IMG/VR virus record: IMGVR_UViG_3300020045_003217 | Location: 1-36,515 of that record | Length of the DNA: 36,515 nt | From: a virus | Lineage: Duplodnaviria > Caudoviricetes | Strand: one strand, 5' to 3' | Part shown: positions 15,477 through 36,288 of the stretch, one piece after another | Position numbering within the stretch: position 1 is the first letter of the stretch | How the letters are laid out: each line of letters opens with the position of its first letter | Translations under genes and position numbers: made by a program | The notes under the pieces: model-generated | The model's input: only the letters and a program-made list of their open reading frames with translations | Databases searched by the model: none | What the model was told of the DNA's origin: nothing

Positions 15477-15947
15477 TTATTTTATAAAGCATTCTGTATA
15501 ACCTTTAAATTTCTTTATTGGTATATATTTTTTGACATTTTTTAATAAATTATATTCAAGATAAGTTGCTTCATATTTATCAATTGTAATTGTTTTTACA
15601 ATTTCTACTTTATATGATATTTTTTCTAGTCTTTGTTTTAGATTTTTAGTTAAACCATATTTATAAAATATTGTATTATCTTCATCTATTATTTTTAAAT
15701 GATATAAGATTAATTCTTCAGTAATCCAAAGTTCTTTAAATCTTTCAGCATTTGTTAAATTATAGGTAGAGGATTGTGATCTTGGAATTTTAATTCTTGT
15801 TTCACTACGTTTAATACTTTTACGTTTATCTTTTTCTTTATATAATTCAGGATTGTTAATTCTACGTAAACGTTCTTTTTCTAATATTATATTTCTATTT
15901 AAAATATAATGTTCTTTTCTTTTAAGACGTCTTTGTTCACTAACCAT
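15477..15947 (-). CDS. Putative free-standing GIY-YIG-like homing endonuclease
   Basis: Basic N-terminus; LYHLKI...FYKYGLTKNLKQRL...A..LE...GYTECF. Confidence 0.6.
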   Translation of the reverse strand: MVSEQRRLKRKEHYILNRNIILEKERLRRINNPELYKEKDKRKSIKRSETRIKIPRSQSSTYNLTNAERFKELWITEELILYHLKIIDEDNTIFYKYGLTKNLKQRLEKISYKVEIVKTITIDKYEATYLEYNLLKNVKKYIPIKKFKGYTECFIK

Positions 15948-29097: not shown

Positions 29098-29243
29098 AAT
29101 AATACTAATCCTAGAATCTGAGAAATTATCAAGAACCTCATAAATGTAGAAGTACTGATTCTAGGTAAAATATAAATCACTTGCTTGAAAATATTTCTGT
29201 TAAAATATTAGGATATGTCAATTATTTTTCGTATATTTGTATT

Positions 29244-29939
29244 ATGGAAAAAGTATATATTTATTGTCTTAAAGACACAGAAGAAAACATTCGATATATT
29301 GGTAAAACAACTAATATTAAACGAAGATTATATTCTCATATTGCAGAAGCAACGAGAAGTAAAACAAATAGATATGTTCATAATTGGATTAAAAGTTTAT
29401 TAAAAAATAAACAAAAACCAATTATTGAAATAATAGAAATTTGTAATGAAAGTAATTGGATTGAAAAAGAACAATATTGGATTAAATATTATAGAAATAT
29501 AATATCAAATCTTTGCAATAGTTGTGATGGTGGAACTGGTGGGATGACTAGAGATAATCTATCAAAAGAACAGTTATTAAAAAAGAAAAAAATAATGTCT
29601 AATACATTTTCAAAATTTACTAATAAAGATAAAGAAATAATATGGAATATGATTCAAGATAATAAAACTCAATTAGAAATAATGGAGAAATATCCTGAAT
29701 ATACAAGACATATTGATTTTGGAGTTAGAAATGGTAGACAATGGAAAACTATAACTAATTTAGATTATATAAATAAAAATTTAAAAAGAAAAGGTTATAC
29801 TTGTAGAAATGGATTATATATGATTCGTAGAAAAATAAACGAAAAATATAGCGTTGTATTTTCTTCAAGAAGTGAAAAAGAAATAATCACTTGGCTCGAA
29901 GATGAACAGCATATTGGGAATGGTCGGCTAAATATGTGA
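29244..29939 (+). CDS. GIY-YIG homing endonuclease (free-standing)
   Basis: VYIYCL ... RYIGKT.N..RRL.SH ... EQYWI ... LCN..DGG; likely start ATG 29244, 4 nt after TATATTTG (29232-29239). Confidence 0.85.
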   Translation: MEKVYIYCLKDTEENIRYIGKTTNIKRRLYSHIAEATRSKTNRYVHNWIKSLLKNKQKPIIEIIEICNESNWIEKEQYWIKYYRNIISNLCNSCDGGTGGMTRDNLSKEQLLKKKKIMSNTFSKFTNKDKEIIWNMIQDNKTQLEIMEKYPEYTRHIDFGVRNGRQWKTITNLDYINKNLKRKGYTCRNGLYMIRRKINEKYSVVFSSRSEKEIITWLEDEQHIGNGRLNM

Positions 29940-30086: not shown

Positions 30087-30902
30087 ATGAAAACATTCAA
30101 AACAGTATCGTTTCATATCATTAAACCATGTAATATGAAATGTAAGTTTTGTTATGCTACATTTAATGATATTGAAATACAAAAACAATTAACATTTGAA
30201 GAATCTTGTGAAATTATATATAAATTATATAAAGCTGGGGTTAAGAAAATCACATTTGCAGGAGGTGAACCAATGTTATATAAACATTTAGATAGATGTA
30301 TTAAATATGCTAAATTATTGGGTTTAACAACATCTATTATAACCAATGGTTCTTTAATATCATTTAACTGGTTAGTTAGTATGAAAGAACATTTAGATTG
30401 GATAGGATTATCTATTGATAGTTTAAATTATGAAACTAATAAAAAAATAGGTAGAATTGGACGAGATAGATTACATTATAACACATTAATTAAACAAATT
30501 AATCACTTAGGTTATAAATTAAAAATTAATACTGTTGTAAATATTCATAATCAAAACGAAATAATATCTGATTTTATAGCACAATCAAAAGCCACAAGAT
30601 GGAAAGTATTTGATACTTTAAAAGTTGAAGGACAAAATGATAAACAATTTAATAGTATTAAATCTACTAATTATAATCAGTTTATTAAGAATAATCAACA
30701 CCCATCAATGGTAATTGAAACAAATGATTTAATGACTGGTTCATATTTATTAATAGATCCTTTAGGTAGGTTGTTTGAAAATACACAAGGAAAACATACT
30801 TATTCTAAATCATTAATAAATAATAATATTGAAGATTGTTTACAAGAAATAAATTTAAATAGAAATATGTTTATTAAAAGAGGTGGAATATATAATTGGT
30901 AA
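30087..30902 (+). CDS. Viperin-family radical SAM enzyme (ddhNTP synthase-like)
   Basis: FH...CNMKCKFCY (CxxxCxxC), KITFAGGEP, SIITNGS, LDWIGLSIDS, KINTVV, RWKVF..L..EGQN, MTGSYLLIDP.GR, C-terminal FIKRGGIYNW. Confidence 0.9.
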   Translation: MKTFKTVSFHIIKPCNMKCKFCYATFNDIEIQKQLTFEESCEIIYKLYKAGVKKITFAGGEPMLYKHLDRCIKYAKLLGLTTSIITNGSLISFNWLVSMKEHLDWIGLSIDSLNYETNKKIGRIGRDRLHYNTLIKQINHLGYKLKINTVVNIHNQNEIISDFIAQSKATRWKVFDTLKVEGQNDKQFNSIKSTNYNQFIKNNQHPSMVIETNDLMTGSYLLIDPLGRLFENTQGKHTYSKSLINNNIEDCLQEINLNRNMFIKRGGIYNW

Positions 30903-32551: not shown

Positions 32552-32950
32552 ATGGAAGAAAATTGGAAAGATATCCCTAATTATAAAGGACTATATGAAA
32601 TAAGTGATTTAGGGAACGTAAAATCCATATACTCTAATAAAGTATTAAAACCATCAGCTGATAGATATGGATATGTTAGGTTTTCTGCAACTAAAAATAA
32701 AAAACAAAAAACATTAAGAATACATAGATTAGTTGCTGATTTATTTATATCAAATCCAAAGAATTTACCACAAGTAAATCATATAGATGGTAATAAAGAA
32801 AATTGTGCTAAATCAAATCTTGAATGGTGCACAGATTCTAATAACAAACTGCATGCTTATGCTAATGGTTTAATGGTTGGAGGTAATAAGTATTCAAAAA
32901 CAAGGCAAGATTTACCAAGATATAAGTTGAAATCTACCAACTTTAATTAG
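32552..32950 (+). CDS. NUMOD4-HNH homing endonuclease
   Basis: EENWKDIPNYKGLYEISDLGNVKS (NUMOD4); IHRLVA..F...VNHIDGNKEN...NLEWCT..N..H (HNH). Confidence 0.9.
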   Translation: MEENWKDIPNYKGLYEISDLGNVKSIYSNKVLKPSADRYGYVRFSATKNKKQKTLRIHRLVADLFISNPKNLPQVNHIDGNKENCAKSNLEWCTDSNNKLHAYANGLMVGGNKYSKTRQDLPRYKLKSTNFN

Positions 32951-34124: not shown

Positions 34125-34230
34125 ATATAACGGGGATGACTGGAATTGACTCTTTGTTACTAATTATATAATTCAGCCAGAGATAACTGTAAACATAGGT
34201 GAAAGTTACTTAAATGTAACAAATTTAAAT

Positions 34231-34344
34231 GGAAAAGATCAAGTATTAGCAAATATGCAAGTAGTTCATAACATCTTAAATGGTAGTGATACTGTTATAG
34301 GTGGTAAAACTTCAGTTAAAACAGAAATGTTAATTGCCGCATAA
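34231..34344 (+). other. tmRNA tag reading frame
   Basis: TTAAAT|GGA resume context; GKDQVLANMQVVHNILNGSDTVIGGKTSVKTEMLIAA*; second in-frame TTAAAT|GGT at 34282. Confidence 0.7.
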
Positions 34345-34691
34345 ATTTAAATAGTTAGTAGTAATACTAACAAATTCAAGCTATAGAATAATTTAGCATT
34401 ACTCCACATTTAATAGAATTTAAGGGAGGTTAAAGATTAAATTCTATAATAAGCTGTATAAAATTATATAACGAATGCAAGGAACACGAGGGTTTGATTT
34501 GGACCCATAGTATAGGAATATACTATTAAAAATTGGAAGAATTGTCTGGAACGCTAAGTTACATCTACGAGAGTAATATGCCAATCAGCAGCCGAGCCTT
34601 ATGGAAGTATAAGGAAGGTTCAACGACTAAGGACACTACGGTGAGCCTACAGCCTCCAACATCTAGAACAGATGATGATATAGTCTAATCT

Positions 34692-35111
34692 CTATTGAAA
34701 AATAGAGCAGAAAAATAGTCTTTCATAAGCTAATTTTCTATTAATTTCAGATAAAGAATATTTACCATTTTTAGAAGTTACAATATTATGATATTTTAAA
34801 ATAGTATTAATTCGATGTAATTTCATTGGATGAATAGATTTTAGTAATTTACATAATTGTAAACATTTTTGATTACTATTAATTGATAATGCATAACCAA
34901 TTGAATGATTTAATTGTTTAGCTGGTTTAGTAGATATTGATAAATTTAAATTATAATTATCTAACAAATACTTTTGTATATCTAATAAGATATTTAATTT
35001 TGTATTTGTAAAATCAATTTTAATTGTTCGATATTTATCATTTTTACTATTTTTACTCATTGTAATTGATCCATCAGCATCAAAAAATCCAGAAATGTAA
35101 TCTAAAGTCAT
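34692..35111 (-). CDS. Single-motif LAGLIDADG homing endonuclease, antisense within the intron
   Basis: N-terminal YISGFFDADGSI; F.NT...LL.DI..YL; 139 aa; stop codon lies in the P9 helix. Confidence 0.9.
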   Translation of the reverse strand: MTLDYISGFFDADGSITMSKNSKNDKYRTIKIDFTNTKLNILLDIQKYLLDNYNLNLSISTKPAKQLNHSIGYALSINSNQKCLQLCKLLKSIHPMKLHRINTILKYHNIVTSKNGKYSLSEINRKLAYERLFFCSIFQ

Positions 35112-35157
35112 AATTTATATTTTATATATTAGTAATGGGGTTAATATAACCCATATG

Positions 35158-35165
35158 CAAATATA
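35158..35165 (-). promoter_or_regulatory. Intron-internal promoter for the LAGLIDADG gene
   Basis: TATATTTG on the minus strand 46 nt upstream of ATG 35111, with TTG about 20 nt further upstream. Confidence 0.65.
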
Positions 35166-35388
35166 CGACATTTAAATTTAAAAAACAAGTAAAATTCAAT
35201 TTATTTTATAATATTTTATATTATATGAAATTAAAACATTGCGAATCCCTCCATCTCCACAGTGATACTTGATCTAACACTAAGAGAGTATCGTGTTTAT
35301 GGATGTAGTTAGCATCACGATAAACCCTGTAACAGCTCAATGTTACCAGTTAGAGTAGGATGACTAGTATGTGAAGCTCTAACAAAAT

Positions 35389-35459
35389 GTCTTTATAGCT
35401 CAGGGGTAGAGCACTTGATGCTAATCAAGGGGTCGACAGTTCGAGTCTGTCTAAAGTCC
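35389..35459 (+). tRNA. Atypical tRNA / pseudo-tRNA (6-nt anticodon loop TGCTAA; identity unresolved)
   Basis: D-arm GCTC/GAGC, anticodon stem CTTGA/TCAAG, T-arm GACAG-TTCGAGT-CTGTC, acceptor GTCTTTA/TAAAGTC with a U-U mismatch. Confidence 0.7.
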
Positions 35460-35487
35460 TAAAAATTAATAATTTTAAATAAATACT

Positions 35488-36288
35488 ATGAAATACATAT
35501 TAATAAAAACTTATCCTGGAAGTCCTAAATTAAATACTATTATTAATTTTGGTGATATAGATTGTGATTTTACACATAATCCAAAAAATTATCCAGAATT
35601 TTGGGAAATAGTTGTTGAAAAAGATTATGAAATATTATCTTTAATAAATATACAAATCCCATCAAAACCAGTAATAATTACTAAAAAAGAAAATAATTTA
35701 TTTTCTATCATTGATACACCTGGCATTAAAACTCTTGAATTTTATGATAAATATGATTATATTAAAATTCATTCAGTTAAAAGATTATCTGATGGCGAAA
35801 TATTTACTATAGATGATGATGTTATTTTTGAATTAGGTAAAGGAAAATGTCATTATAAACATTTTAGAAGTGGTAAGTGCGCAATTGATATTGCAACTAA
35901 AATTGTATCTTTTGTAATTCAAGAAGATATGTTAACAGTCCAGATAGACTATAATAAACTGTGTTATTCATTAGATGCTCCTGAAAAAGTTAAAAAAGTA
36001 TTATTTACAACTGAAGATGGTGTTGATATTTTTGAAGGTGATTATTATTATCCTGTAGATAAATTATATTATTTTTTACATGAAAAGCAAACAAATAATC
36101 ATTGTACAAATAATGATAAATTTTGGATATTTTCAACAAAAGAAAAAGCTGAAGAATATATTTTAATGAATAAACCTTGTTTATCGTTAAATGATATTGA
36201 ATTTGCAATTTTTAAAACAAATAATGCTGAAGAAAAGCGTAATAAATTAAAAGATTTAGTAAAATCAAAAATAAAACAGTCCGTGTAA
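35488..36288 (+). CDS. Hypothetical phage protein
   Basis: 266 aa; LIKTYPGSP, IHSVKRLSDGEIFTI, LFTTEDGVDIFEGD blocks. Confidence 0.7.
   Translation: MKYILIKTYPGSPKLNTIINFGDIDCDFTHNPKNYPEFWEIVVEKDYEILSLINIQIPSKPVIITKKENNLFSIIDTPGIKTLEFYDKYDYIKIHSVKRLSDGEIFTIDDDVIFELGKGKCHYKHFRSGKCAIDIATKIVSFVIQEDMLTVQIDYNKLCYSLDAPEKVKKVLFTTEDGVDIFEGDYYYPVDKLYYFLHEKQTNNHCTNNDKFWIFSTKEKAEEYILMNKPCLSLNDIEFAIFKTNNAEEKRNKLKDLVKSKIKQSV

Follow-up and report, generated by a model that had tools for sequence, protein, structure and literature searches.

Sequence analysis confirmed an intact single-motif LAGLIDADG endonuclease gene lying antisense in the group I intron of a crAss-like phage tmRNA gene, within what we call the window, that is, the whole stretch of DNA analysed (36,515 nt). 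In the reading that we hold to be highly probable, this is a selfish mobile intron, in which the intact antisense endonuclease, expressed from a promoter of its own, would cut the intron-free tmRNA T-arm and thereby spread the intron.

The window is a 36.5-kb virus record that carries terminase, portal and major head genes. The head protein shares 59% identity with its counterpart in Cellulophaga phage phi14:2 and 45–48% with those of gut crAss-like phages, and the window's source is accordingly assigned from sequence to the crAss-like phages, most likely with a Bacteroidota host. Among GenBank phages there was no close relative of the nuclease protein (two records, at 29% identity) or of the window's tmRNA exon. 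Further selfish-looking genes in the window are a GIY-YIG homing endonuclease gene (29181–29939, + strand), a NUMOD4-HNH gene (32552–32950, +) and a 156-aa ORF directly upstream of the head gene (15477–15947, −). A radical SAM protein, presumably viperin-like judging by its size, is encoded at 30087–30902 (+). The features of the split tmRNA gene and of the gene inside it are the following.

34132–34494, + strand: tmRNA (ssrA) 5' exon, up to and including the second T of the T-loop (ARAGORN on the sequence spliced in silico)
34132–34138 with 35252–35258, + strand: acceptor pairing, including a G3-U pair (sequence reading)
34231–34344, + strand: tag reading frame of 37 aa ending in LIAA, if the resume codon is 34231
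34495–35241, + strand: group I intron of 747 nt at T-loop subsite 3, with omega-G at 35241 (Rfam, in-silico splicing, boundary rules of PMC11915505)
34490–34506, + strand: P1 helix with a U-G pair at the 5' splice site (folding)
34496–34501 with 35242–35247, + strand: possible P10 (read from the sequence)
34484–34707, + strand: ribozyme core P1–P9 with a P7.1-type extension (Rfam RF00028, 97.3 bits, E = 1.8e-25)
34690–34707, + strand: P9 hairpin with a GAAA loop, strands 34690–34696/34701–34707 (sequence, Rfam, folding)
35242–35259, + strand: tmRNA 3' exon, with the remaining T-loop, T-stem, acceptor 3' strand and discriminator A (ARAGORN on the spliced sequence, T-arm assignment)
35186–35188, − strand: TTG, which we take to be the −33 element of the promoter, 20 nt upstream of the −7 box (motif scan, conservation)
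35158–35165, − strand: −7 box (TAnnTTTG) of a Bacteroidota sigmaA-type promoter, here TATATTTG, with a predicted start at ~35153 (motif scan, conservation, PMC9723704)
35135–35154, no strand: 20-bp even-centred pseudo-palindrome over the predicted start (about −1 to +19), a candidate operator (symmetry test and matrix)
34692–35111, − strand: LAGLIDADG homing endonuclease gene, single motif, 139 aa (ORF call, Pfam, alignment, AlphaFold model, dN/dS)

The tmRNA gene is confirmed to be split in its T-loop (subsite 3) by a 747-nt group I intron. Removal of 34495–35241 in silico yielded a tmRNA called by ARAGORN with a 7-nt T-loop, and the boundaries are those expected at subsite 3, namely a −1 U that pairs with G in P1, a terminal G and restoration of the 7-nt T-loop (the rules for the −1 U and terminal G, as well as the subsite numbering, are from PMC11915505). 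The core match came from a local scan with RF00028, for which the cut-off is 50 bits; scans of the whole window missed both the intron (Rfam) and the unspliced tmRNA (ARAGORN). The intron would be expected to self-splice, leaving a working tmRNA. The last nuclease codons and the stop codon (34692–34694, other strand) double as P9 and its GAAA loop, the stop falling within P9, as the earlier note on this DNA had read it, and there in the 5' strand, and the space from P9 to the terminal G is filled by the remainder of the nuclease gene and its leader. As for the tag, we infer the resume codon at 34231 from matching upstream context in host tmRNAs, and ARAGORN puts the tag start at 34303 (13 aa). 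With this resume codon, on which the lengths depend, the tag is long both in the window (37 aa) and in related phage tmRNAs (mostly 34–37 aa); the usual tmRNA tag has 10 aa (PMC11915505).

The 139-aa ORF antisense to the intron at P9, described before as a single-motif LAGLIDADG protein, matches PF14528 (E = 3e-8) and PF00961 (E = 3e-6). Its motif, GFFDADG, spans residues 8–14, and G8, D11, D13, G14, N36, K97 and N115–Y118 are invariant in 68 of 68 family proteins. We take D13, N36 and K97 to correspond to I-CreI D20, Q47 and K98, with the role of catalytic acid assigned from I-CreI D20. The AlphaFold model (pLDDT 90.9) shows an alpha-beta-beta-alpha-beta-beta-alpha fold, and its nearest structures are I-Vdi141I and I-CreI. 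One homologue search returned 170 homologues out of 178 candidates, the best at 94% identity. With dN/dS below 1 in 16 of 16 pairs (0.07–0.50), the nuclease gene is, by this comparison, under purifying selection. The mobile intron is real and probably active.

These same data bear on a further alternative, a remnant gene in decay whose expression or activity has ceased. Frame breaks are present in two of 32 clade copies (L048 and L050; L numbers denote loci), and the three pairs that involve the window show the highest dN/dS of all (0.33–0.50), which would fit decay. Against it, the window's ORF reads full-length, retains every invariant residue and is preceded by a perfect promoter motif, while relatives at 94% identity share its length and intron-free siblings persist. 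We consider decay highly improbable.

The nuclease gene is likely transcribed from its own predicted promoter of the Bacteroidota sigmaA type, as the earlier note had proposed from the box at 35165–35158 (−), which is indeed present. Alone, TATATTTG occurs in 21% of 2000 local shuffles; box and TTG 20 nt upstream together occur in 0.7%. The strict two-part motif was found in 14 of 32 clade leaders against 0.27 expected, and with one mismatch in 26 of 32 against 3.0 expected (the sequences are related in both counts); across these leaders the boxes are kept while the spacers vary. Since TATATTTG fits the Bacteroidota sigmaA −7 box, which sits at −12 to −5 (PMC9723704), transcription is predicted to start near 35153. 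The two-part motif is not enriched across the window as a whole (7 found versus 4.5 ± 1.9 expected), and a sigma-70 scan, the wrong promoter type, revealed nothing upstream of the nuclease gene and no terminator. The motif is absent from four copies in bacterial or bacteria-like contigs (L044, L045, L107 and L108); in L107 and L108 the upstream host gene is co-directional with the nuclease gene.

The predicted start is covered by the pseudo-palindrome at 35135–35154, whose profile is, at the level of sequence, what one would expect of an operator bound by a dimer. A matrix from which the window's own row was left out gave it the highest score in the 36.5 kb (19.3 bits, next 12.8). In 42 dereplicated, still related leaders the even register with a 4-bp centre exceeded shuffles with z 8.8; other spacings did so too, with z 2.7–6.6, and 30 control leaders from the window had no palindrome excess. 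An unseeded motif search settled one base off this register (mean 8.9 bits versus ~4.5 in shuffles) and was set aside in favour of the direct symmetry test. The palindrome precedes the gene whether the copy is intron-borne or free-standing, and also in some of the sense copies; one subgroup has it overlapping the −7 box, another downstream of the box.

An RNA hairpin, or a site for some other phage or host regulator, are the competing explanations of this palindrome, and taken together they have a chance close to even. In their favour, the sequence can form a 6-bp stem, it resembles the T-arm only weakly, and the literature that we covered, with few subscription journals, holds nothing on LAGLIDADG autorepression. 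The hairpin that the earlier note saw here survives as an inverted repeat, less so as an RNA structure: the leader folds no better than shuffles (z −0.19), the arms are often mismatched, in many relatives the palindrome overlaps the −7 box and hence is mostly untranscribed, and it accompanies the gene through intron, free-standing and sense layouts. A DNA operator is therefore more likely than an RNA structure. Binding of this putative operator by the nuclease dimer without cutting, as I-TevI does, is a serious proposal that we place slightly below an even chance; with a conserved palindrome at its predicted promoter, the nuclease gene may switch itself off. On the palindrome matrix, the best register of the T-arm junction reaches 4.2 bits and is centred on CGAA, where GGGT and part of the right half agree, which does no more than suggest a link between palindrome and target. 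The palindrome's symmetry would set the dimer axis at the T-loop CGAA and place one nick at the intron insertion point. The intronless site had also been called pseudo-palindromic; a palindrome exists in the T-arm, but it is centred on a single base of the 7-nt loop, and the best even-centred registers match at 4–5 of 11 positions.

We assembled 104 family loci with at least 70 aligned residues, some contigs appearing twice. In this partly redundant set, a tmRNA 3' end or intron adjoins or encloses 92 loci; a T-arm was assigned automatically for 76, all of them tmRNA-type, and no locus was assigned to a tRNA gene. By this distribution, the nuclease family is a tmRNA specialist. The gene is antisense within an intron at 37 loci (subsite 3, 25; subsite 7, 5; subsite 8, 7) and in sense within it at 11, which speaks against the earlier view that expression depends on antisense placement. 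At 12 loci it stands free next to a gene-less intron (7 antisense, 5 sense) and at 16 next to an intact tmRNA end (14 antisense). For sixteen further loci, an intron core or a tmRNA 3' exon lies no more than 250 nt away, and 12 lack both; of these 12, two are located at contig ends and ten have identities no higher than 35%.

In the tree (139 columns; duplicates L012 and L069 and broken or partial genes omitted), the window's protein falls in a 30-row clade with support 99/97, antisense throughout and composed of 19 rows at subsite 3, three at subsite 7, five at subsite 8, one without an assigned subsite and two free-standing; the labels of about a dozen rows were assigned by eye. L034 (subsite 8) is nested among subsite-3 rows in a group with support 100/98, and the P7.1 type differs in L003 and L037; gene, intron core and subsite therefore reassort. 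The two free-standing rows nested in the clade point to intron loss. L006 and L041 are apparent reversions from intron-borne to free-standing; in L006, the nuclease gene lies between a remnant of intron core and the old 3' exon. With 18 open forks and a midpoint root, the family-wide order of events is not settled by this tree.

This distribution favours the mobile-intron reading. The nuclease likely cuts intron-free tmRNA T-arm DNA, after which repair would transfer the intron to rival phages and, now and then, to a host gene. A homodimer of the I-CreI type would bind about 20–22 bp across the T-arm, a site that would be interrupted by an intron at any of subsites 3, 7 and 8. The orientation of the nuclease gene was likely inherited, the cassette of promoter, palindrome and gene retaining its own signals in or out of an intron.

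Candidate targets are common among related phages. A phage tmRNA set of 98 loci comprised 85 intact alleles without the gene, 7 with intron and antisense gene and 6 others, so that 7 of 7 introns in it carry the nuclease gene antisense. Homing targets exist, since most related phage alleles are intact and there are siblings without the intron. Together with the family's tie to tmRNA T-arms, these intron-free alleles support the suggestion that the enzyme is aimed at rival phage ssrA. One such sibling was found in runs X2 and X4, where a contig identical to window positions 34371–34488 continues, after six different letters, at 35242. We tried this joint as spliced RNA and rejected it because the junction letters differ: it is an intron-free DNA allele with a GGCGG stem. 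Sequencing runs contain at most 35% of the sequence words, true RNA runs at most 9%, and no set of raw RNA reads contains the stretch; no spliced junction was seen in the four runs compared, which are contigs and probably mostly DNA. Two close intron-free relatives, L305 and L306, have a full compensated stem. The sibling's GGCGG stem may reflect escape from the enzyme or else past cutting followed by co-conversion, a transfer of exon flanks from the donor that is known in homing (PMC2988022).

Because the pattern used for the first phage tmRNA set required G at stem position 3, that set cannot test a rule on the stem. The complementary pattern retrieved only four non-G stem alleles, none with the gene within 1 kb; two of the four are L305 and L306. 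In a second, unbiased set, GGG precedes the T-loop in 52 of 52 intact gene-less alleles, and L006, the only intact allele accompanied by the gene, differs in having a rewritten stem that lacks GGG, its old 3' exon lying behind the free-standing gene. Exceptions to the stem rule are L031, L035 and L036, which hold introns in non-GGG stems, and L065/L066, where a free-standing sense relative beside an ordinary intact arm speaks against a strict form of it. Free-standing relatives at L028, L029 and L078–L084 sit by intact tmRNA ends whose T-loop is abnormal at 8 nt (AGTCGGAG) and may represent an immune allele. At L272, a gut crAss-like tmRNA is interrupted by a subsite-3 intron, and the locus contains no nuclease gene.

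Host genes may come within range as well. We compared the best-scoring 30 ssrA genes from 61 Flavobacteriaceae genomes: stem and loop are the same as in the window's junction in 11 of these 30 arms, which makes this the commonest arm, and 13 of the 30 lie within two mismatches of the 22-bp junction. Furthermore, 58 of the 61 genomes contain a site within three mismatches of a 21-mer, versus one control match; most of these sites are one tRNA gene, identified as tRNA-Ser(GGA) in three of three checked and sharing 17 bp. Host entry happens, though rarely, since L107 and L108 are Flavobacteriaceae chromosomal copies nested in the phage clade; their neighbours, read by eye, are housekeeping genes (malate dehydrogenase-like and fumarylacetoacetase-like). 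No match came up in 400 genomes sampled from the phylum, the centre genome not counted. The anticipated reach into host ssrA thus finds support in the matching arms and the two chromosomal copies, whereas for the cutting of tRNA genes only the possibility stands, in the shared 17-bp core, against 76 assigned arms that are all tmRNA-type.

This host-side match is what would favour a weapon, an enzyme that mainly cuts host ssrA, tRNA-Ser(GGA) and rival phage ssrA and leaves the phage's long-tag tmRNA in charge: the window's exon flanks correspond to the commonest host arm and match only 3 of the 85 intact arms in the phage set, and nearly all the Flavobacteriaceae genomes offer a site, mostly in the tRNA gene. 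However, the gene is present in only 7 of 92 state-called phage-set tmRNA genes and missing from close siblings, a pattern of selfish elements rather than of a needed function; moreover, bacteria have family members in their own ssrA, and no family locus maps to a tRNA gene. We regard the weapon as improbable. Regulation of intron splicing, by the antisense transcript or by the protein as a maturase, merits hardly any credence. The transcript necessarily runs through P9 and the intron's 3' portion, and a LAGLIDADG maturase is known from a Thermotoga 23S intron (PMC3984707), yet the cassette occurs intron-free (14 antisense loci by intact tmRNA) and in sense, and the promoter motif is missing from the antisense chromosomal copies L044, L045, L107 and L108. 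The same leader motif is found outside introns, which disfavours the earlier idea of a transcript that tunes splicing.

LAGLIDADG genes after P9 in tmRNA introns are known already. A 2025 tmRNA database paper (PMC11915505) counts 883 intron-form tmRNA genes, with LAGLIDADG in 23 of 844, four of them after P9. The nuclease family itself is already in published data, because the intron alignment of that paper lists the contigs of L107, L108, L113 and L115. The introns described there agree with ours in T-loop subsite 3 (all Bacteroidia in that set) and in the gene after P9; here, in contrast, the intron belongs to a crAss-like phage and with 747 nt is longer than any there (none above 700). In its accessible part, the paper is silent on orientation, promoter, free-standing relatives and one clade across subsites 3, 7 and 8. 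In the literature covered, again with few subscription journals, we found none on phage tmRNA introns with LAGLIDADG genes, their orientation or promoter, nor did we find in print the operator idea or the series from free-standing to in-intron copies.

The enzyme shares its single motif, fold and intron-encoded nature with I-CreI, I-Vdi141I and I-TnaI, but identity is 14–18%, the target is tmRNA rather than rRNA, and the C-terminal RNGKY...LAYERLF is invariant here. Collaborative or intronless homing is known in phages from F-CphI/psbA and the T4 Seg enzymes (PMC3984707, PMC2988022), much like our free-standing copies by a gene-less intron (12 loci) or an intact allele (16); neither F-CphI nor the T4 Seg enzymes are LAGLIDADG proteins, whereas in the present case all states are seen within one family and at one target. 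I-TevI, a GIY-YIG enzyme, represses itself through an operator identical to its homing site at 15 of 20 positions (PMC2988022); our candidate operator likewise sits at the enzyme's own promoter, but its likeness to the target is weak and its binding putative. I-DsqI, an antisense His-Cys enzyme of nuclear rDNA introns, is also encoded opposite a non-coding RNA; it is eukaryotic and relies on a spliceosomal intron and poly(A) (as reported in PMC9548176), in contrast to the predicted bacterial promoter and LAGLIDADG protein found here.

Origin of a mobile intron by capture of a free-standing nuclease counts two phage cases so far, according to PMC3984707. In this small family, free-standing, collaborative, captured and released states occur at a single target, and the natural intact, intron-bearing and candidate immune alleles make the capture model testable. 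If a LAGLIDADG dimer does bind the operator, autorepression would no longer be confined to the T4 enzymes. Through this element, crAss-like phages are also connected with introns in a host translation-rescue gene. A broader proposal, which we advance tentatively and rate as rather unlikely, is that a self-repressing T-arm LAGLIDADG cassette cycles among Bacteroidota phages and hosts, by turns standing alone, accompanying an intron that has no gene, being captured into introns (sense or antisense, at three subsites), leaving them again next to an immune T-stem that has been rewritten, and even settling in a permuted tmRNA's spacer, with crAss-like phages as the reservoir that seeds minor-subsite chromosomal introns. 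If this were true, the cycling cassette would be the first LAGLIDADG homing enzyme to double as its own repressor.

Some loci have unusual layouts. In L055 and L056, inside a tRNA cluster, the 461-nt spacer that separates tmRNA 3' and 5' pieces holds a family member in antisense (L055 gene at about 1600–2250, −), a piece order that corresponds to a permuted, two-piece tmRNA. The pieces co-fold to an acceptor and long helices (−27.3 kcal/mol), with no second 3' end after them; ARAGORN did not call either locus as a tmRNA, and a search for short-spacer permuted tmRNAs in viral contigs found none. In L006, L026, L029, L080 and L111, a duplicated tmRNA acceptor 3' end, resembling an att scar, is present on the far side of the gene. 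Downstream of the window's tmRNA, four successive predicted hairpins occupy 35260–35390 (+; −29.7 kcal/mol; no Rfam match). They are followed by a tRNA-like gene (35389–35459, +) whose anticodon loop, around GCT, has 6 nt and whose variable region is short; this gene is present in the X2/X4 sibling and missing from L305/L306. L305 and L306 lack the entire block 35260–36272, which includes the tRNA-like gene and a 266-aa ORF (PHROG 11079), and there the tmRNA end joins the position equivalent to 36273.
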